A stretch of DNA of 64,000 bases from Promethearchaeota archaeon (GTDB lineage: Archaea > Asgardarchaeota > Lokiarchaeia > Sigyniarchaeales > SOKP01): contig CP070805.1 of assembly GCA_020343655.1 (NCBI GenBank), forward strand, positions 1,955,145-2,019,144. The letters are read 5' to 3'. Of this stretch, positions 53,252 through 64,000 are shown one piece after another (within the stretch, counting starts at the first letter, position 1; each line of letters opens with the position of its first letter). The notes under the pieces were generated by a model. That model was not told the DNA's origin and ran no database searches. It saw only the letters and a list, made by a program, of their open reading frames with translations. A program made the position numbers and the translations under genes.

Positions 53252-54196
53252 TTAAGAAAAATCTAGCATCTTCTCAATAGGTTTTAAAGCTTTTTTTGCT
53301 ATCTCAAGGGGTACTTTAACTTCAAAAGCTTTATCATCTAAATTTTCTAAAAGATATTTTATTAGTTCTAAGTTATGTTTCTTCATATTATAGCATACTA
53401 ACTTATCTTTTGCTAAGTAAAAACTCTTTTCTGGAAAATCCTGGGCCATACGTTCTAATAATCCTACTTCTGTCCCTATTATGAACTCTTTTTCTTCAGA
53501 AGAACTATCTCTAACATAATTATACATTCGTGAAGTGGAACCTACATAATTTGCTAACTCTCTTACTCCTCTAATACATTCGGGATGAACAATAAGTTTT
53601 GCTTTAGGATATTTTTCTTTAACAGTTTTTATATCCTCTATAGTAATCTGAGAGTGCACGTAACAATGCCCAGATTCAGGCATATTAATACAATTAATTC
53701 CCGAGATTTGTTCGGTGTAATCTGCTAAGTTAGCATCTGGTCCAAATAATACTGAATCAACCTCAAATTCGTTACTAATTTTTTTCACTATTTCAACTGC
53801 ATTAGCAGATGTGCAACAAATATCCGATTCAGCTTTAACAGCGGCAGTTGAATTGACATATATAACAGCAGGTAATCCTGGATTATTTCTTTTAAACTCT
53901 TTGACCATTTCAGGAGTAAGAAATGCTGCCATTGGACAACATGATTCATAATTAGGTATTAAAACATGCTTGTCTTGATTTAGTATTGAGGCGGTTTCTG
54001 CCATGAAGTCTACTCCTGCAAATATAATATATTCTGTATTTGCTTTTTCTTTTGCTGTTCGAGATAATCCAAGAGAATCACCTATAAAGTCAGCTATTTC
54101 CTGTATTTCGATGGATTGATAATAATGAGCAAGTACTAATACATCATTTTGATTTTTTAAGTTCAAAATATCTTCTTGTAATTGCTTAACAGTCAT
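53252..54196 (-). CDS. nadA: Quinolinate synthase
   Basis: LAHYYQ, GDSLGL, GVDFMAE, CPMA, YVNS, CTSANA, CYVH, HPEC, GST, CYNM. Confidence 0.96.
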   Translation of the reverse strand: MTVKQLQEDILNLKNQNDVLVLAHYYQSIEIQEIADFIGDSLGLSRTAKEKANTEYIIFAGVDFMAETASILNQDKHVLIPNYESCCPMAAFLTPEMVKEFKRNNPGLPAVIYVNSTAAVKAESDICCTSANAVEIVKKISNEFEVDSVLFGPDANLADYTEQISGINCINMPESGHCYVHSQITIEDIKTVKEKYPKAKLIVHPECIRGVRELANYVGSTSRMYNYVRDSSSEEKEFIIGTEVGLLERMAQDFPEKSFYLAKDKLVCYNMKKHNLELIKYLLENLDDKAFEVKVPLEIAKKALKPIEKMLDFS

Positions 54197-54352: not shown

Positions 54353-57300
54353 TTAATCCTCACTCATGCATTTTTTTAATATTAAATTATAGAGTTGAAC
54401 TACATTCTTCTCGAAATCCATTAAATCGAATTTAAGTCCCAACCTTGGTTTAAGAAGTGGGGGGATATGATCTTGATCTAAAAATACAGGAATTATAGAT
54501 TTGCCCATCATATCCGCTGTAGTCCATTCCTTATCAACCGGTATAGAATTTAAAGCATTTTCAGAACAAAATAAGATCATTGCATTACATCTTCCAAGAT
54601 TATTACTCATATAGAGTATAATATTATCTTTCACATGTTCTCCCCAATATAATACCTCCTTAATTTCGTCGTATGCGCTTAATCTCTTTGCTAATTCCTC
54701 TATTTTAAACAATTCAGCATCTGCTGTAGCATAACTTATAAATATTACTAAATCCTCTATTTTCTGAGCAGTCTTTGGTCTTTTTTCTCTCAATGGATAA
54801 TTTCTAAATTCAGTGATAAAACCTCCATCCTTTAGAAACTTACCAATCTTTTTTGCAGTTTTAAAATCATATCCTAATCCTATTATTAAATGATATAAGG
54901 AGGGCTTAATGGATTCTTTTAATATTTTCGTCCCTAATGCCTCTAAATTATTAATGTCAGACTCATCATACGGTATAGGTTGTTTTAATAAATTTTCATA
55001 ATATTCTGTGTCTGAGATTTCTATATTAAGTTGGTTAACCATCTCAGCTTTAGTGATATCTCTCTGATTTTCAAACTCAAATTCTAGAATCTTTTTAACA
55101 ATCTTTAGAGTTTCTTTCGGGTCCCTTAAATTCTTCAGTTTTTCAAAAGCAATCTCTTTAATTTCTTCAAAATTAAACAACTCAGCGGATTCTAGAACAT
55201 AATTTAGCTGTTCAATAGCTTCTGAATATTCATTATTAACAATTAACTGTTCTACACTTGATAATTTTTTTCGTAGTTCTTTTAGAAGTTCTGCTTGTTC
55301 TTCTATTAATAAATCCCATATTAAAACATCGCCAGAATTGTATCCTGCAATTATTTGGTCTCTATTGGGAATAAATTTTGCTGAATTAATTTTTGATAAG
55401 TAATAATAAGATGTTTGATGCTTCTCCATAAAATCCCATAATCTAACAAAATTATCTGCTGTTCCACAAGCCACATATAATCCATCAGTTGAAAATGTGA
55501 CTGATGTAACTGGGCTATTTATTTTTTCAAATGTATAATCTAACTCACCAGTTTCAAACTTCCATATTTTAACAGTTTGATCCTTAGAACCACTTGCAAT
55601 ATATTGCCCATCTGGAGAAAACTCAATTGAAGTTACAACATCATTATGGCCCTCAAGAGTGCGAATTTGCTTTCCCTTCTTCATACTCCATATTTTAATA
55701 GTAGTATCTTCTGAACCAGTTGCTATATATTCCCCATTTGATGTAATATCGACTGATGTTATTGCTTTTGAGTGTCCTTTTAATTTTTTCTTTAAGTTAC
55801 CTGTATGTGTCTCCCAAATTATAGCAGTATTATCTTTCGAACCACTAACAATATAATCTTTATCAGGAGATGCTGCTACAGAAGTCACAGCTTGATCATG
55901 GCCACTAAGTGTCCACAATATTTCACCACTTTCAATTTCCCATATTTTTAATGTATTGTCATAAGAACCACTAACAACAAATTTTCCTCCTGGTGAAAAT
56001 GCCACAGAACTGATAATATCTGTATGGCCCTTTAGAGTTTTGATCAAATTTCCATTTGAGAGATCCCACACTATTAAAGACTTATTTGATAAACCGCTCA
56101 CAGCATATTTTCCATTTGATGAAACTGCTACGGAATTCACATTTTCAGAATGACCTTTAATATATTTGAATACACCACCAAAATCAAGTGCCCAAATCTT
56201 TAGTGAGCCGTCCTGAGAACCGCTTATAGCATATTTCCCATCTGGAGTTATTCCTACAGATGATACTTTATCTGAATGACCTTCAAAAGTCTGGATAAGC
56301 TCATACTTATTATCCCACACTTTTAGTGTTTGATCATTTGAAGAACTAATAAAACAATTACCTATTGGAGAAAAAGAAACACCTGAGACAATATCAGAAT
56401 GTTGTTCAAGACTATCTATTAAATCTCCTGTATAGAAATCCCAGATTTTTATAGATTTATCATCAGAACTACTGCAGATATTTGCTCCATTTGGGGAAAT
56501 TGCTAATGATAATATATTTCCTTTATGACCACTAAGATCTTTAATTACTTCCTTTGAATTGAAATCCCATATCTTTATGTGTTTATCTTCGGCACCGGTT
56601 ACAAAATATCTCCCATTAGGTGTGAATTTTATTGAGGTTATGGGGCCCTTATGAACTTTTGATTCCCATATGAAATCATTATTCTGAAGGTCCCAGATTT
56701 TTAGTGTGCTATTGTTTAAGCCCATAACTATTTGTTTATCGCTAGGAGTAAATGTTAATGAATTTACAATCTGTCCTATTTTATCTAAAGTTACTATTGG
56801 TTTTGTATTTATAAGATCCCATATGATTACTTTCTTATCTAAAGAACTGCTAACAAGATAATTACCATCGGAAGAAAAAGCAATTGCATTAATAGGTTTT
56901 TTATAGTCTGTAAGAGTTCTTATCAAATTTAAACTCTTAAAATCCCATATTTTAAGTGTTTTGTCGTTTGACCCTGTTCCAATAAAATCTCCATTCTGAG
57001 AAATTGATAAAACGTTTATCCCATCTGTATGAGCATTTATGGTTTGCTCTAATCTACCTTCCATAAACTCCCAAACCATCAAATCATTATCTGTAGAACC
57101 TGTGATTATATATTTACTATCAGGAGAAAAAGCAATTGATAATACAATACCAGTATACTTTCTTAATGTCCTAATGATTTTACCTGTTGATAAATCCCAA
57201 AATTTAATAGTTTTATCATCAGAACCACTTGCTAATAACTTTCCATTTGGTGATATTGCTACAGATCGAACAATTTCTGAATGACCTTCAAGGATAGAAA

Positions 57301-58027
57301 TAATTTTAGACTTCGTTAAGTCCCATATTCTTATTGCATTATCATTTGATCCACTAGCCATAAACTTCCCATCAGGAGAAACTGCTAAAGAAGTTATAGC
57401 ACCAGAATGCCCTTTAAGAGTACGTTCGAATTTTTCTTTCTTTAAATTCCATATATTGATGGTTCCATCATCTGTTCCGCAAACTAAGTATTCTCCGTCA
57501 TTGAATAAAGCAATTGAGGTTACACCACTTTTATGTTGAAAAGTGTGCACAGGTTTTGCGCCCAAGATATCCCATATGATAACCCTTTTATCCATAGAAC
57601 CGCTTATAATATACTTCCCACCAGGAGGGACTACTAATGAGGTAATTGAATCGGTATGTTCTTTAAATTCATTAATAAAATTACCTCGTCTTGTTCCCCA
57701 TATTTTTATCGAATTATCAGTAGAACCGCTAAAAATATAATTATCATCTAATGAAATTGCTACTGATAATATTGACTGACTATGAGCTTCTATTGTTCTT
57801 AAAAGATTTCCTGTTGAAAAATCCCAAATTTTTAAAGTTTTATCTTCTGATCCGCTAATAATATAATCGCCTTTATTAGTAATAGCAACCTGATTTACGC
57901 TACTAGTATGACCAAAACTTTGAGCCATATGAAAAGCTTTTGCGAGTCCTTTCCTTTTAGGATATAAATGTTGGGGATATTCAAAACTGTCTTTAATTCT
58001 TTTTTTCTGGAACTCAACTTGCACCAA
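54353..58027 (-). CDS. WD40-repeat (21 repeats) protein with C-terminal TIR domain
   Basis: 21 countable GH..SGS.D..IKIWD-type repeats, helical linker, TIR IFISYATAD...LFCSENALNSIPVDKEW...IIPVF..IPPLL. Confidence 0.93.
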   Translation of the reverse strand: MVQVEFQKKRIKDSFEYPQHLYPKRKGLAKAFHMAQSFGHTSSVNQVAITNKGDYIISGSEDKTLKIWDFSTGNLLRTIEAHSQSILSVAISLDDNYIFSGSTDNSIKIWGTRRGNFINEFKEHTDSITSLVVPPGGKYIISGSMDKRVIIWDILGAKPVHTFQHKSGVTSIALFNDGEYLVCGTDDGTINIWNLKKEKFERTLKGHSGAITSLAVSPDGKFMASGSNDNAIRIWDLTKSKIISILEGHSEIVRSVAISPNGKLLASGSDDKTIKFWDLSTGKIIRTLRKYTGIVLSIAFSPDSKYIITGSTDNDLMVWEFMEGRLEQTINAHTDGINVLSISQNGDFIGTGSNDKTLKIWDFKSLNLIRTLTDYKKPINAIAFSSDGNYLVSSSLDKKVIIWDLINTKPIVTLDKIGQIVNSLTFTPSDKQIVMGLNNSTLKIWDLQNNDFIWESKVHKGPITSIKFTPNGRYFVTGAEDKHIKIWDFNSKEVIKDLSGHKGNILSLAISPNGANICSSSDDKSIKIWDFYTGDLIDSLEQHSDIVSGVSFSPIGNCFISSSNDQTLKVWDNKYELIQTFEGHSDKVSSVGITPDGKYAISGSQDGSLKIWALDFGGVFKYIKGHSENVNSVAVSSNGKYAVSGLSNKSLIVWDLSNGNLIKTLKGHTDIISSVAFSPGGKFVVSGSYDNTLKIWEIESGEILWTLSGHDQAVTSVAASPDKDYIVSGSKDNTAIIWETHTGNLKKKLKGHSKAITSVDITSNGEYIATGSEDTTIKIWSMKKGKQIRTLEGHNDVVTSIEFSPDGQYIASGSKDQTVKIWKFETGELDYTFEKINSPVTSVTFSTDGLYVACGTADNFVRLWDFMEKHQTSYYYLSKINSAKFIPNRDQIIAGYNSGDVLIWDLLIEEQAELLKELRKKLSSVEQLIVNNEYSEAIEQLNYVLESAELFNFEEIKEIAFEKLKNLRDPKETLKIVKKILEFEFENQRDITKAEMVNQLNIEISDTEYYENLLKQPIPYDESDINNLEALGTKILKESIKPSLYHLIIGLGYDFKTAKKIGKFLKDGGFITEFRNYPLREKRPKTAQKIEDLVIFISYATADAELFKIEELAKRLSAYDEIKEVLYWGEHVKDNIILYMSNNLGRCNAMILFCSENALNSIPVDKEWTTADMMGKSIIPVFLDQDHIPPLLKPRLGLKFDLMDFEKNVVQLYNLILKKCMSED

Positions 58028-58283: not shown

Positions 58284-58703
58284 TTAATCAAATCTCTTAC
58301 GTGTAATTATTAAGTATATAATTCCAAACACTCCCATACAAAATGCAAGTATAATAATATAATTTGGCCAATAAGCAAAATCAAATATACCTGGATTTAT
58401 TATCCAACTTAATATTGCATTAATTGTAATCACAACCATTAAGCTTAGAAGTACTAGTGCTTGTCCCATTGCCCACTCTGCTTCTTTAAACAATCCTATT
58501 CCCGATATCAAACACCAGATGCCTAAAACTATTGAGAGGAGCCATTGTCCACCAATACCAATTACTGGATCCCAACCTGGAGGAACTAATATTCCGATCA
58601 CTGGCAAGAACTCAAGAATTCCCTTGAAAATGAAAACTGCTCCTAAAGCGATTAATAAAATATTAAAAAGCCCACTTGATCCTTTTACTTTACTTGTACT
58701 CAT
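58284..58703 (-). CDS. Small 4TM membrane protein
   Basis: Four hydrophobic segments; GIGLFKEAEWA loop. Confidence 0.75.
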   Translation of the reverse strand: MSTSKVKGSSGLFNILLIALGAVFIFKGILEFLPVIGILVPPGWDPVIGIGGQWLLSIVLGIWCLISGIGLFKEAEWAMGQALVLLSLMVVITINAILSWIINPGIFDFAYWPNYIIILAFCMGVFGIIYLIITRKRFD

Positions 58704-58885
58704 TTTAAATTTACCCTCTAATTATTGATAAAAATTGAATTTAATTATTAAAAAATTGTTATATAAATATTTAAAGATTTATCTTTACTTCAAAACAAAT
58801 AGAAATCGATATTATTTTTATCTGTTTTTATATAGAAATAATGTAAAAATAAAAAGAAAAAATAAATAAAAAAATTATATTTTTT

Positions 58886-60613
58886 TTATAAAACTCCAGC
58901 ATCTTTTAATATTTGCTTGTGATCAAAGGCTAAATCCATCAATTTGATCTTATCAATTTCTATAGCCTCAGCAACAATAGCATCGTCTCCTCCTTTTAAT
59001 CTTGAAACATCTTTTACTATACGACATTGATATGCTGTTGATACAATTCTTCCACGTGGGTCTCGGCCTTTTTGATCATATGTCCCAATCTTTTTTATGA
59101 TCTCTACAGCTAGACCGGTTTCCTCTCTCACTTCTCTTATTATAGCTTGTTCCGGATCTTCATTGTATTTTATGAATCCACCAGGGAGGGCATATTTTCC
59201 TTTGTAAGGAGCATACTTTCTTTTAATTAATATTACATTTTGGTTATCATCTTGAATGACGGCATCAGCCGTATGTCCCAGTTCTGAAGCTTTTGAAACT
59301 ATTCTGACATATATAGTATATCCTACAATAATTATGACGAATGCTCCTAAAATTATCGAAAGTATTGTATGCAGTAACGGCGATGGTTGAACTGTTTCTT
59401 CTATGGCAAAAGAAACTCTTATTGCATTAGCAAATTCCACTATAAATCCTAAGCCAAATAGGACATTCAAGTAGTATATAGCCTTTTTTGTTCTTTTTTG
59501 GGTCTCTTCACTTCTCTTTAAATATAACTCTTGCAAAGAATCATATAGCATCGTGAATTTTTCATTTATTCTTCGTATAACTTCTTCAATACGAAATTTC
59601 CTAATTAAGTGGGTTAATATCCTTTTATAATGTTGACGTTGATTCCGATCCAACTCATTATAAATAAGGCTCATCTTAGTCTGAATCATTCCTCTTAAAA
59701 ATCTTAAATTTTTAGTTTTGTCTTCAATTCTCTCTAAGCTCATAAAGACATCGGAATATCTCTTCATAAATAAAACATCAAGAGAATGATTAATTGTCAT
59801 TAGCGCGAATAATACTGCTCTAATTTTTGTTGCTGGTTCTAATATATGTTCTATCATATATGGAAATTCTGATTCATAGTTTCTTTCTGCCATATAAATA
59901 AACCCAGAATTTCTCTTGATATAATGCAATTCAGATAACCGATTTGATAAATTCTTTTTAACCCTTCTTTCAAAAAGATCATCACTATAATCACGCCATT
60001 GACCAGCGTAAATTTGAGTCCAATATCCAAGAACTTTTCTATTCTTGTATACATTTTCCTCATCCCATTGAATTTCCATCGGTGTGGTTTTTGTGGATAT
60101 CACGAAAAGATAAATTGGGCTGTCTGTATCAAGAAGTAAATATTGATTTTCTTTTTTCTTACTAAATTCCTTTAAGATATCAAGTACTATAAATGGTACT
60201 TGTTGGATTAAGTCTGGTTTAATTTTCTCTTTTTTAAATGACTCATTTTTGAAATATTCTACTTCGAATTTAAAATAACCTAAAGTATTGTAAATCAAAT
60301 CTTTGTCATCTTCCGTATATGGATTATCCTCATCGATATAGGGGAAATTTTGGAAAAATGGTTCCCAATCACATTCAATTGAAATTGATTTAGCCATTTC
60401 TATTAAGATGTCTTTCTTTTCTTCAGCATAGGGAGTTTTTTCTAAAAATGTGAATACTTTTTTTAAATCATTATCACTTAGATCTTTTAATCTTTTTAAT
60501 AATAGAGCTTCTATTTCTTCTGCTTTAGTTTCTCCAATAAATTCATTTGTATTAATGAATGCACTAACATACCAGTATTCTTTTCTATATATAAATTGTA
60601 AATTTCCTTCCAT
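58886..60613 (-). CDS. CorA-like soluble domain plus 2TM fused to a C-terminal Nudix hydrolase
   Basis: Nudix box GGFIKYNEDPEQAIIREVREETGL with RDPRG, GDDA, LAFDH; two TM helices preceded by a long helix. The CorA-like call is by architecture only. Confidence 0.8.
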   Translation of the reverse strand: MEGNLQFIYRKEYWYVSAFINTNEFIGETKAEEIEALLLKRLKDLSDNDLKKVFTFLEKTPYAEEKKDILIEMAKSISIECDWEPFFQNFPYIDEDNPYTEDDKDLIYNTLGYFKFEVEYFKNESFKKEKIKPDLIQQVPFIVLDILKEFSKKKENQYLLLDTDSPIYLFVISTKTTPMEIQWDEENVYKNRKVLGYWTQIYAGQWRDYSDDLFERRVKKNLSNRLSELHYIKRNSGFIYMAERNYESEFPYMIEHILEPATKIRAVLFALMTINHSLDVLFMKRYSDVFMSLERIEDKTKNLRFLRGMIQTKMSLIYNELDRNQRQHYKRILTHLIRKFRIEEVIRRINEKFTMLYDSLQELYLKRSEETQKRTKKAIYYLNVLFGLGFIVEFANAIRVSFAIEETVQPSPLLHTILSIILGAFVIIIVGYTIYVRIVSKASELGHTADAVIQDDNQNVILIKRKYAPYKGKYALPGGFIKYNEDPEQAIIREVREETGLAVEIIKKIGTYDQKGRDPRGRIVSTAYQCRIVKDVSRLKGGDDAIVAEAIEIDKIKLMDLAFDHKQILKDAGVL

Positions 60614-60820
60614 TTTTATTTGCCCTTAATTGTTTAAAGAGGTTAAATTATTATTAAAATACTATTCTATTTATTACTTTTTTTTTAAAATTAGCTTTAT
60701 TTTTTTTTTTTAGTTTCCAATTTTTCTGAGCTGATTTCAAGCTGTTTTAAAAGGTTTATATACAATAGCACTTTCACTTTAATTAATTAGATTTCCAATA
60801 TTAAATTTGAGTTGACACAA

Positions 60821-63800
60821 ATGACTAAAAAGAAGCAAATATTTAATTTATTAATAGTTTTCTTTATTATTTTGATAATTGGATATCTAGGTGAAAATCT
60901 AGCTACAAATTATGCAGAAACAGTAGAAGATAAAACACAAAAGAACCTTAGGAATTCTGGTTATTGGGTACTTGATTTTATACATGTTAAGGGTAATTGG
61001 ACTCAAACAAATTCTACCTTTGATTGGTGTTCTGGTTCCGGAACAGAAATTGATCCGTATTTGATTGAAAATGTTGTTATAGATGGCCAAAATTCAAGCA
61101 GTTGTATAATAATTGAAAATACAAGAGAATATTTTGAAATAAAAAATTGTACTTTATATAATGCGGGAGCCGAACAAATTCCAGAATATGATTGTGGAAT
61201 CAGAATAGAAAATTGTAGTAATGGAAAATTAATTAATAATAATATTTCATTTAATAATTTCATCGGTATGTATCTTGATGATTGTAATAATACTGTTATT
61301 CAAGGTAATAATGTTTCACACAATGAATGGAGTGCAATTTATCTATTATTCTGTCAAGACTGTAAGATTGTTGGAAATAATGTATATAATAATTCTCGAG
61401 AAGGAGCCTATCTTACACGTTCTGATTACTTAACTGTATTAGATAATACATTTATTAATAATTCTGAGAGTGGTGTAAGTTCATATCAAAGTGACCATTG
61501 TTACTTCAAAAATAATACAGCCTCATTTAATTTAGAGTCCGGATTTCAACTATTGTCGATATTTAATAATACAGTGATTAATAACACCATAAATAACAAT
61601 GGTGCTCACGGATTATTGTTAAATGATGCTAATAATTGTACCATTATAAGAAATATAGCAAATAATAATACTGGAACTATGGCTGCGGGAATTTTCTTGG
61701 GCAATGGTAATTATAATTCATTCTTAGGCAATATAGCAGAATTTAATTATTGGGCTGGGATTTTCTTTCAAGGAACCTGTCTTTTTAATAATGTAACAAG
61801 AAATAATTTGACTTATAGTGGTGTAACTGGGTTATATTTTTGGGGTGCATTTGGACCTATTGAACAAAATATTATTTCAGGAAACAATATAACTAATCCT
61901 GGTGAGGAGGGGATACAACTAGCAGTCTGTCAATTTAATACAGTTGTAGGAAACAATATCGATGATAATAATTATGGGGTGCTCTTAAACAGTTGTAATA
62001 ATACCTCTATTTCTGGAAATACAATAAAAAATAGTTTCAATAACGGAATATATTTAGTAAATTTTAATGAGAATAATACTATCTCAGGAAATGTTATTGT
62101 CAATCAAAGTTGGGGGATACGTATAATAAACAGAAATAAGAATAATAAAATAATTAATAATAATATTTCAGAGAGTCGGAGTTCAGGTATTCATGTTGAT
62201 TTCTTAAATGATTTAAATATTATCTCTGGAAATATTATAGATAATAGCGATGAGGATGGTATATACCTTTCTGATGAGTGTACAAAAAATGTCATTTCTG
62301 GAAATACTATTGATAATAACAGTCTTAATGGAATTCTATTAGAGGATGAGTGCAATAATAATACAATTATGGGTAATACTATAAAAAGCAATGATAATAA
62401 TGGGATTTCTCTAGATAATAACTGTTATAATAATACTATAATTGGAAATAATATTTATAATAACTCGAATTTTGGGCTTTATTTAGATGACCATTGTGAA
62501 AGAAACGAAATTTCTGGTAATAATCAAATATGGAACAATTCTAACGGGATTTTCCTCTATACCTGTGATCATACTATAATAAATAACAATGATATTTACA
62601 ACAATAGCGGATATATAGCATGGATGCAATATAACAACTATACAACCTTTTGTAATAATAATATATATGAAAATGATTTATACATGTATATTCATAGTTG
62701 TTATTTTAGCAATTATTCTGACAATATAATTATAAATAACGCAGATCACGGATTATATCTTCTAAGTTGTGAAAATAATACTATTTCAGGAAATACCATA
62801 ACTAATAATGAAAAAAATGGAATTTATTTAAGAAATAGTATTAATCATACCATTACTGGTAATATTATCAAGTATAATGATGAAAAGGGAATTTATGTAG
62901 AGAATAGTAATAATACTAGTCTTACTGGGAATATTATTACAGATAATGGTGAAAACGGAATATATTTACTAACCAGTAATTATAATAATATTACCGGAAA
63001 TTATCTGATTTGTTATTTGGAATGCATTTTAGAGGATACATGTGTAGGAAATATTATAGAAAATAATGAGTATTACGTAAATCTCACCAGCATTCCTGTT
63101 TTCATAGATGGTAATAGTCAATGGAGTTCTATTGCAAGTTCAGAGTTTTGGTGTAGCGGTTCTGGAACTTTTAATGATCCATACGTTATATCTCATGTTT
63201 ATATCAATGGACAAGATTCCGGCTCCTGTATCTTAATCCAAAACACTACAGCTTATTTTACAATCGAGGAAAGTATTATATTTAATTCAGGATCAGGGAA
63301 TTATGACGCTGGTATCAAATTTATTAATGTAACCAATGGAAATATAATAAATAATAATTGTTCATTAAATCTTGGTTCAGGGATTATATTGTTATATTGC
63401 TCCAATATGACGATTTTAAACAATATCATGGAAAATAACCCTAATAGTTATGGATGTTGGCTAATTTGGAGTGATAATAATAATCTTACTGGAAACACTG
63501 CGTATAATAATAATATTGGAATTGGTCTGAATTATAGTAACTTTAATGATATCATTGGTAATTTTTTAGATTTTAATAGCTACGGTGTGACACTAGGGCA
63601 TAGTAATAACAATACTATTATGGGAAACACCTTAAATAATAATTCCTTACATGGTATCTTTTTATATTTCAGTGATTACAACTTCATTTCAGGGAACATC
63701 ATAAATGGTAATGAACACTATGGAGTATATCTATTTTCAAGCGATTATAACACGATTTCATTTAACACATTTATTTTTAATGTGGAAGGGATTGTTGAAA

Positions 63801-64000
63801 ACGGAACTAGCACTGGAAATGTTTTTGAAGATAATGATATTGTAAATAGAGATAGTGATGGTGACGGGTTACCAGTCCAACCTGATAACTTAATATTTAT
63901 TATAATTGCTGCTGCTGGAATTAGCGTGGGAGTAATGGGAACTATTATTTATACACAATATAGAAGAATTAAACGAAGAAAAAGAACCGATTGGGTTAAA
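60821..64000 (+). CDS. Large surface right-handed parallel beta-helix (NosD/CASH-like) protein, type I membrane, runs off the right edge
   Basis: ATG 60821, signal-like hydrophobic stretch, many GIYL..NNTISGN repeats, two WCSGSGT..DPY caps (about 61025 and 63148), TM LIFIIIAAAGISVGVMGTIIY then RRIKRRKR; no stop seen. Absent from ORF track. Confidence 0.88.
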   Translation, partial: MTKKKQIFNLLIVFFIILIIGYLGENLATNYAETVEDKTQKNLRNSGYWVLDFIHVKGNWTQTNSTFDWCSGSGTEIDPYLIENVVIDGQNSSSCIIIENTREYFEIKNCTLYNAGAEQIPEYDCGIRIENCSNGKLINNNISFNNFIGMYLDDCNNTVIQGNNVSHNEWSAIYLLFCQDCKIVGNNVYNNSREGAYLTRSDYLTVLDNTFINNSESGVSSYQSDHCYFKNNTASFNLESGFQLLSIFNNTVINNTINNNGAHGLLLNDANNCTIIRNIANNNTGTMAAGIFLGNGNYNSFLGNIAEFNYWAGIFFQGTCLFNNVTRNNLTYSGVTGLYFWGAFGPIEQNIISGNNITNPGEEGIQLAVCQFNTVVGNNIDDNNYGVLLNSCNNTSISGNTIKNSFNNGIYLVNFNENNTISGNVIVNQSWGIRIINRNKNNKIINNNISESRSSGIHVDFLNDLNIISGNIIDNSDEDGIYLSDECTKNVISGNTIDNNSLNGILLEDECNNNTIMGNTIKSNDNNGISLDNNCYNNTIIGNNIYNNSNFGLYLDDHCERNEISGNNQIWNNSNGIFLYTCDHTIINNNDIYNNSGYIAWMQYNNYTTFCNNNIYENDLYMYIHSCYFSNYSDNIIINNADHGLYLLSCENNTISGNTITNNEKNGIYLRNSINHTITGNIIKYNDEKGIYVENSNNTSLTGNIITDNGENGIYLLTSNYNNITGNYLICYLECILEDTCVGNIIENNEYYVNLTSIPVFIDGNSQWSSIASSEFWCSGSGTFNDPYVISHVYINGQDSGSCILIQNTTAYFTIEESIIFNSGSGNYDAGIKFINVTNGNIINNNCSLNLGSGIILLYCSNMTILNNIMENNPNSYGCWLIWSDNNNLTGNTAYNNNIGIGLNYSNFNDIIGNFLDFNSYGVTLGHSNNNTIMGNTLNNNSLHGIFLYFSDYNFISGNIINGNEHYGVYLFSSDYNTISFNTFIFNVEGIVENGTSTGNVFEDNDIVNRDSDGDGLPVQPDNLIFIIIAAAGISVGVMGTIIYTQYRRIKRRKRTDWVK

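Follow-up and report, generated by a model that had tools for sequence, protein, structure and literature searches.

A conserved fusion of a CorA-shaped two-helix membrane protein with a Nudix hydrolase, and its TIR-domain gene neighbours, in Asgard archaea

The DNA analyzed here is a stretch of 64,000 nucleotides (the window) from a Promethearchaeota archaeon (assembly GCA_020343655.1, contig CP070805.1, positions 1,955,145 to 2,019,144 of the forward strand). Towards its end lies a gene whose product, of 575 amino acids (aa), joins a membrane body with two transmembrane (TM) helices, predicted to be CorA-shaped, to a C-terminal Nudix hydrolase domain. This is a real, conserved architecture, apparently undescribed. 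Because the gene sits between two TIR genes of the type that cleaves nicotinamide adenine dinucleotide (NAD), a module for NAD-derived signalling or clean-up at the membrane is suggested. The parts of the gene are reported below, with the evidence used for each.

58886..60613, minus strand: gene for a CorA-shaped protein with two TM helices and a Nudix hydrolase, 575 aa, member of clade A (open reading frame, homologues, model, tree)
59480..60613, minus strand: soluble N-terminal body, aa 1-378 (models, conservation, fold matches)
59411..59479, minus strand: TM1, aa about 379-401, continuing the stalk helix (hydropathy, alignment, model)
59294..59383, minus strand: TM2, aa about 411-440, with basic residues after it (hydropathy, alignment)
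58889..59278, minus strand: Nudix domain, aa 446-575, similar to NadM/NrtR (ADP-ribose pyrophosphatase), with RDPR and AFDH motifs (profiles, fold)
59111..59179, minus strand: intact Nudix box, G479-L501 (sequence)

The region 58886-60613 is a single unbroken frame on the minus strand, and the gene is real: a search with residues 1-440, accepting target proteins of 316-1007 aa, returned 528 homologues at E<=0.001. The long helix (LYDSLQELYLKRSEETQKRTKK), the two TM helices, the full Nudix box and the absence of the canonical GMN motif, all listed by a first-pass annotation made from the sequence, were each confirmed in this frame by sequence, hydropathy and Pfam. That annotation had considered that body and enzyme might always be split genes in homologues; this is not the case, as the fusion is conserved, with a NUDIX domain in 116 of 120 homologues among the matches listed. 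The AlphaFold model of the full-length protein, based on a 91-row alignment (pLDDT 88.8, pTM 0.75), shows in this order a beta-sheet domain, a helical bundle, an unbroken helix (342-401), a short loop, a second helix (411-443) and a Nudix fold. Within the soluble body the models assign residues 1-241 to the beta-sheet and helices, 243-339 to the helical bundle and those from 342 to the stalk helix. The hydrophobicity of TM1 is weak and that of TM2 strong (maximum Kyte-Doolittle values over 19 residues of 1.63 and 2.6). In the family, the stretch after TM2 contains on average 3.8 K/R vs 0.8 D/E, and charges are biased, being basic before TM1 and after TM2 and acidic in the loop. Topology was read from this bias by the positive-inside rule, which places both the soluble body and the Nudix domain in the cytoplasm. 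The codon composition of the gene is native, with GC content at third codon positions (GC3) at the genome mean.

The Pfam NUDIX match spans aa 448-570 (E 1.6e-18). The Nudix box, G479-x5-E485-x7-R493-E494-V-R-E497-E498-T-G500-L501, is canonical and satisfies GX5EX7REUXEEXGU; the strict form is kept in 54/62 fused rows of the family alignment. By NCBIfam, the domain scores better with NadM (E 2.8e-16) and NrtR (1.2e-15) than with MutT (4.6e-9), all of them below the whole-protein cut-offs. NadM-Nudix and NrtR are also its closest relatives by profile and structure, and the NCBIfam, PDB and fold matches uphold the earlier description of an intact Nudix and point to the ADP-ribose type. We therefore consider it likely, from sequence, that the domain is an active enzyme of this type. 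Its closest characterised relatives, the NadM-Nudix and NrtR/NuhA ADP-ribose pyrophosphatase domains, are joined to an adenylyltransferase or a winged helix, whereas here the Nudix domain is joined to a membrane body. A substrate other than ADP-ribose (oxidised nucleotides, Ap4A, NADH, capped RNA), with incidental NAD-related neighbours, could be proposed, since the best PDB sequence match is named 8-oxo-dGTPase domain, homologues are mostly called '8-oxo-dGTP diphosphatase' by automatic naming, and Nudix specificity is described as difficult to infer from sequence (PMC9503650). However, NCBIfam and fold favour NadM/NrtR over MutT (E 1e-16 vs 5e-9), and the family occurs in two separate NAD-related gene contexts, nadA and TIR, which makes this alternative very improbable.

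In the structure search, CorA-family chains alone matched the fold of the body over its whole length. The 2-TM-GxN proteins CorA, ZntB, CmaX and MRS2 are described as having a soluble alpha/beta body, a long helix running into TM1, a short loop, TM2 and a basic stretch (PMC12933068). The layout is the same here: a soluble alpha/beta domain is followed by a stalk helix that extends into TM1 and then by TM2, as in the channels of T. maritima (2iub/3jcf) and M. jannaschii (4ev6). Unlike them, the 575-aa protein carries an enzyme at its C-terminus, its soluble part is larger, it has no G-x-N motif over its entire length, and thus no GMN/GxN selectivity motif after TM1, and it is only 5-9% identical to CorA chains in structural alignments. 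No match to the CorA profile (PF01544) was found in the Pfam scan of the protein, none is present among the 25 of 117 families listed for 91 family members, and HHalign comparison with 29 Asgard CorA sequences gave probabilities of 0.3-2.1%, with no match at sequence level. The term 'CorA-like', used in the first-pass annotation, thus holds for the overall shape, weakly backed by fold, and fails for sequence and profile. We consider a CorA-type fold likely.

In TM1, a family motif, L-N-x-x-x-G-x-G-x-x-x-[DE], is kept across fused and unfused members (N383 in 75/91, G387 in 74/91 and D/E393 in 77/91 rows). A polar/aromatic cluster of the soluble body (W183, W198, Y202, G204, D208, Y209, R217, N221-R225, E228, H230, N235, S236) is conserved and common to fused and unfused relatives alike. 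Within clade A, conservation is lowest in TM2 (0.57) and in the loop (0.48), vs >=0.8 elsewhere. A GxN after TM1 is found in 3/91 rows and is not conserved. One of the three, the fused member L073:8578-10269, has a literal GMN right after TM1, about one residue off the position expected from CorA, which may be due to chance. Whether the body forms a conducting pore is, in our estimate, evenly balanced, and the gating of such a pore by a ligand that the Nudix domain destroys is possible but unlikely.

The family is small: among 1.84 billion representatives, only 103 were matched by a profile search. Named homologues are Asgard archaea, mainly Promethearchaeota/Lokiarchaeota; the family was found in 64/301 genomes of the phylum and 66/101 of the taxonomic family. 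Two trees were built, the second on 67 selected rows. They separate clade A, of about 575 aa, which contains the present gene (support 100), from clade B, of about 558 aa (support 87), and also show other fused forms and unfused forms of 390-480 aa, which belong, where named, to Thorarchaeota, Heimdallarchaeota and Kariarchaeaceae. Fused forms share one side of a branch with one unfused row (support 88, unstarred); this fits a single fusion event, though it is not proof of one. Clade A is patchy, being present in 22/101 genomes of the taxonomic family. No relative was found in plasmid and viral contigs. An 849-aa homologue (P0137 / P0227) labelled mmetsp, presumably a collection of transcriptomes from marine eukaryotes, shares the body and the two TM helices; its Nudix box is degenerate, and it has a tail of low complexity. 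It forms one cluster of two members, shows 33-39% identity with Asgard members, branches within the fused forms, and may reflect gene transfer or contamination. Four very distant unfused relatives of 389-454 aa (P0203, P0204, P0211, P0218) apparently end after one hydrophobic helix.

The features surrounding the gene are as follows.

60812..64000, plus strand: receptor-like gene, divergent, for a 1424-aa protein, ending about 1.1 kb past the window (profile searches, gene layout)
58845..58874, minus strand: T-rich tract directly after the stop codon, possible terminator (sequence)
58284..58703, minus strand: 139-aa protein with four hydrophobic helices (gene layout)
54353..58027, minus strand: cytoplasmic WD40-repeat protein of 1224 aa with a C-terminal TIR (aa 1095-1214) (Pfam, alignment)
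53252..54196, minus strand: nadA, quinolinate synthase, NAD biosynthesis (Pfam)

The 1424-aa protein has an N-terminal hydrophobic helix, a beta-helix region, a TM helix (aa 1028-1046) and a TIR (aa 1082-1191), the latter encoded just outside the window end. Two of the four TIR_2 matches of the genome thus flank the 575-aa gene. The T-rich tract and gaps of 180-260 bp make an operon unlikely, and suggest that the gene is transcribed separately from those downstream of it. The nadA gene marks a chromosomal slot usually held by the paralogous clade B; here the clade A and TIR genes occupy this nadA/hexapeptide-gene slot. The 139-aa protein gave no significant Pfam match; it is found near clade-A genes in 10/28 loci, and its family in 62/101 genomes. 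A second copy is present in 9/13 genomes with an orthologue of the WD40-TIR gene, a pattern that parallels the A and B paralogues of the Nudix fusion. A Sir2-family gene, another NAD-consuming enzyme, lies about 15 kb away (window:43211-44020). Elsewhere, the window encodes a 507-aa actin-family protein with C-terminal zinc ribbons (window:19103-20626), a 337-aa protein whose N-terminal domain is a Ras-family GTPase and whose extension is unassigned (window:35401-36414), and a 908-aa open reading frame with no Pfam match at E<=1e-4 (window:12824-15550).

Linkage was counted on deduplicated loci, scoring TIR genes within 6 kb. Such genes are found at 18/28 clade-A loci, the present one included (13/17 where both flanks reach at least 4 kb), at 3/68 other fused loci, two of which lie beside a clade-A gene, and at 0/13 unfused loci; about 2% would be expected if they were scattered. 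A nadA gene is nearby in 7/28 clade-A, 36/68 other fused and 0/13 unfused loci. The TIR neighbours have at least 8 architectures, and the WD40-TIR gene occurs in four orientations. The Glu that we take to be the catalytic residue is kept in the WD40-TIR protein and in 27/27 aligned neighbour TIR domains. An orthologue of the WD40-TIR gene (>=57% identity, middle domain) is present in 13/22 clade-A genomes vs 0/79 others, the latter count setting aside four genomes with weak matches alone; in some genomes it is not adjacent to the clade-A gene. A distant fused relative of 619 aa from another family (L029:4729-10187) is flanked by zinc-ribbon-TIR, N-terminal TIR and SIR2-like-TPR genes, all of NAD-consuming types, and its flanking TIRs are the only two TIR_2 matches over the cut-off in its genome. 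Two loci hold clade A and clade B together in the nadA slot, tail to tail (L019:6001-9566 and L042:483-3999), which suggests that a TIR cassette entered beside an older clade B paralogue and replaced it in genomes like the present one. The TIR link of clade A is strong but non-obligate. The best explanation is that in clade A a paralogue has been recruited to TIR proteins, and that clade B, which is widespread, is tied to NAD metabolism. The two flanking TIR genes, the TIR-linked subfamily and its nadA-linked sister go beyond the first-pass annotation.

Two readings give the TIR genes a minor role. According to the first, the protein is a membrane-tethered ADP-ribose/NAD-salvage pyrophosphatase, its body being a non-conducting scaffold which anchors and oligomerises the enzyme, and beside TIRs it would do no more than clean up ADP-ribose. 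The lack of a selectivity filter, the poor conservation of TM2 and loop in clade A, the nadA linkage of the widespread paralogue, and the presence of the family in most genomes of its taxonomic family with GC3 at the genome mean are in line with this. On the other hand, Thorarchaeota, Heimdallarchaeota and other lineages retain unfused bodies with the same soluble cluster, and the body therefore serves a function by itself; the polar N383 and D/E393 in TM1 of fused and unfused members are also unusual for a plain anchor. We regard this reading as doubtful. According to the second, the protein is a housekeeping channel or transporter whose substrate is some ion or small solute, but not Mg2+, and it would be tuned by NAD/ADP-ribose status, the TIRs being passengers at an insertion-prone locus. 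The CorA-like fold, the clade B and some clade-A genes with no TIR nearby, and the separate canonical CorA encoded by the same genome, which covers Mg2+, speak for it. It is nevertheless rather unlikely, since TIRs lie beside clade A and almost never beside clade B in the same nadA slot, and since the link persists through four WD40-TIR rearrangements and recurs in a distant relative.

The protein was also compared with systems in which similar parts are combined. CorA from type III CRISPR systems is reported to be paired with an NrN/DEDD phosphodiesterase or a SAM-AMP lyase in B. fragilis, and fused as nrn-corA in A. butzleri (PMC10600005); the ligand is proposed to bind the soluble domain (PMC10600005, PMC11229360), and CorA-Csm6-2 fusions are known (PMC11229360). 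As described there, a divergent CorA-like protein with two TM helices is coupled, sometimes fused, to an enzyme destroying a nucleotide signal. Here, by contrast, the enzyme is a Nudix, the partners are TIR proteins or nadA, no cas genes, and thus no type III CRISPR locus, are found among the neighbours, and a search of the genome, which is 82% complete, yielded no RAMP gene. With type III CRISPR the protein is connected only by analogy. The choanoflagellate TRPM2 chanzyme is described as carrying an ADP-ribose-type Nudix (NUDT9-H) on the C-terminus of a pore (10.1101/2023.03.16.533055), and a C-terminal Nudix on the putative pore could in principle likewise remove its own agonist. With two TM helices only, CorA-family chains as best body fold matches and a NadM/NrtR-type Nudix, the present protein differs from TRP scaffolds with NUDT9-H, and the likeness is analogy, not homology. 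The TRPM2 scaffold is a tetramer with six TM helices. The logic proposed here resembles the CRISPR CorA/NrN pair more than TRPM2.

As in Thoeris, TIR genes with the kept Glu adjoin the gene of a putative membrane effector of NAD-derived signals. Unlike Thoeris, the TIRs are large sensor/receptor fusions, the genes are divergent or separately terminated, and no defence-island operon combining a stand-alone ThsB-type TIR with an effector of known type is seen. An antiviral, abortive effector of Thoeris-like or CRISPR-CorA-like type, in which TIR sensors would signal infection, the cell would be killed or stalled by the pore and the system would be reset by the Nudix, would agree with the sensor-TIR architectures on both flanks, the patchiness of clade A and the nrn-corA precedent (PMC10600005). 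It is improbable, as the surrounding genes are housekeeping and form no defence island, the PADLOC match is limited to the Nudix part, codon composition is native, plasmids and viral contigs yielded no relative and an operon structure is absent. The protein falls outside CorA proper, having neither GxN nor profile match, outside CRISPR CorA, given the missing RAMP match, and outside Thoeris and TRPM2; it plausibly works like CorA proper and TRPM2 in logic. Literature searches gave no paper describing a CorA-shaped 2TM-Nudix architecture, in keeping with the first-pass annotation, which had not recognised it as described. No match for CorA or Nudix occurs in the main text of a Thoeris survey (10.64898/2025.12.03.692087) or of an Asgard defence paper (PMC11291487), and none for CorA in that of a survey of viral NAD-ADPr (PMC9503650).

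The reading that we prefer, with a confidence a little short of even, is that the protein forms a CorA-shaped oligomer, that its Nudix removes ADP-ribose derived from NAD, and that clade A acts in TIR signalling. The computation shows the architecture, fold likeness, intact box and gene linkage. The divergent CorA-fold membrane protein probably oligomerises as CorA does. The WD40-TIR or membrane receptor-TIR protein, once triggered, would cleave NAD+, as its family and kept Glu indicate; ADP-ribose or a derivative would reach the CorA-shaped protein and alter the state of its membrane part, by analogy with CRISPR CorA. The conserved soluble-domain cluster would be the most likely binding place: its presence also in unfused members leads us to expect the candidate ligand site in this cluster, the Nudix then acting as off-switch. 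To judge from its intact box and subfamily, the fused Nudix would then hydrolyse ADP-ribose to AMP (adenosine monophosphate) and ribose-5-phosphate, ending the signal and recycling it. Several observations weigh against a close link to TIR genes. No TIR gene adjoins the loci of the relatives at 88%, 80% and 80% identity, whereas that of a relative at 78% has one nearby; the genome of the 88% relative carries TIRs elsewhere, and genome G156 has none. Among 57 hand-picked genomes, 11/24 with clade B only lack TIR_2, and 11/16 without the family have it. Moreover, related genomes are not independent in the linkage counts, and a cassette moving as a block produces co-occurrence by itself.

The earlier proposal of a nucleotide-gated channel degrading its own ligand is partly supported, by the CorA-like shape, the intact ADP-ribose-type Nudix and the conserved fusion. 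In its fullest form, which we consider possible but unlikely, a nucleotide-gated channel-enzyme, built on a CorA scaffold and able to end its own signal, would be the output of archaeal Toll-like signalling: receptor-TIR and WD40-TIR proteins would cleave NAD+, the product would open the pore and the fused Nudix would close it. If this were true, a TRPM2-like logic would have arisen independently in Asgard archaea from an NAD-housekeeping paralogue. Among known prokaryotes, Asgard archaea are the closest relatives of eukaryotes, and they contain many TIR fusions. For these the family provides a testable candidate output and off-switch within one polypeptide, with a built-in comparison among unfused, nadA-linked fused and TIR-linked fused forms. 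Should the body conduct, the protein would be a channel-enzyme from prokaryotes, built on a scaffold on which no Nudix is known, and would show the reuse of a CorA-shaped protein with no magnesium filter; should it not, the protein would still be an undescribed membrane-bound enzyme of ADP-ribose type.
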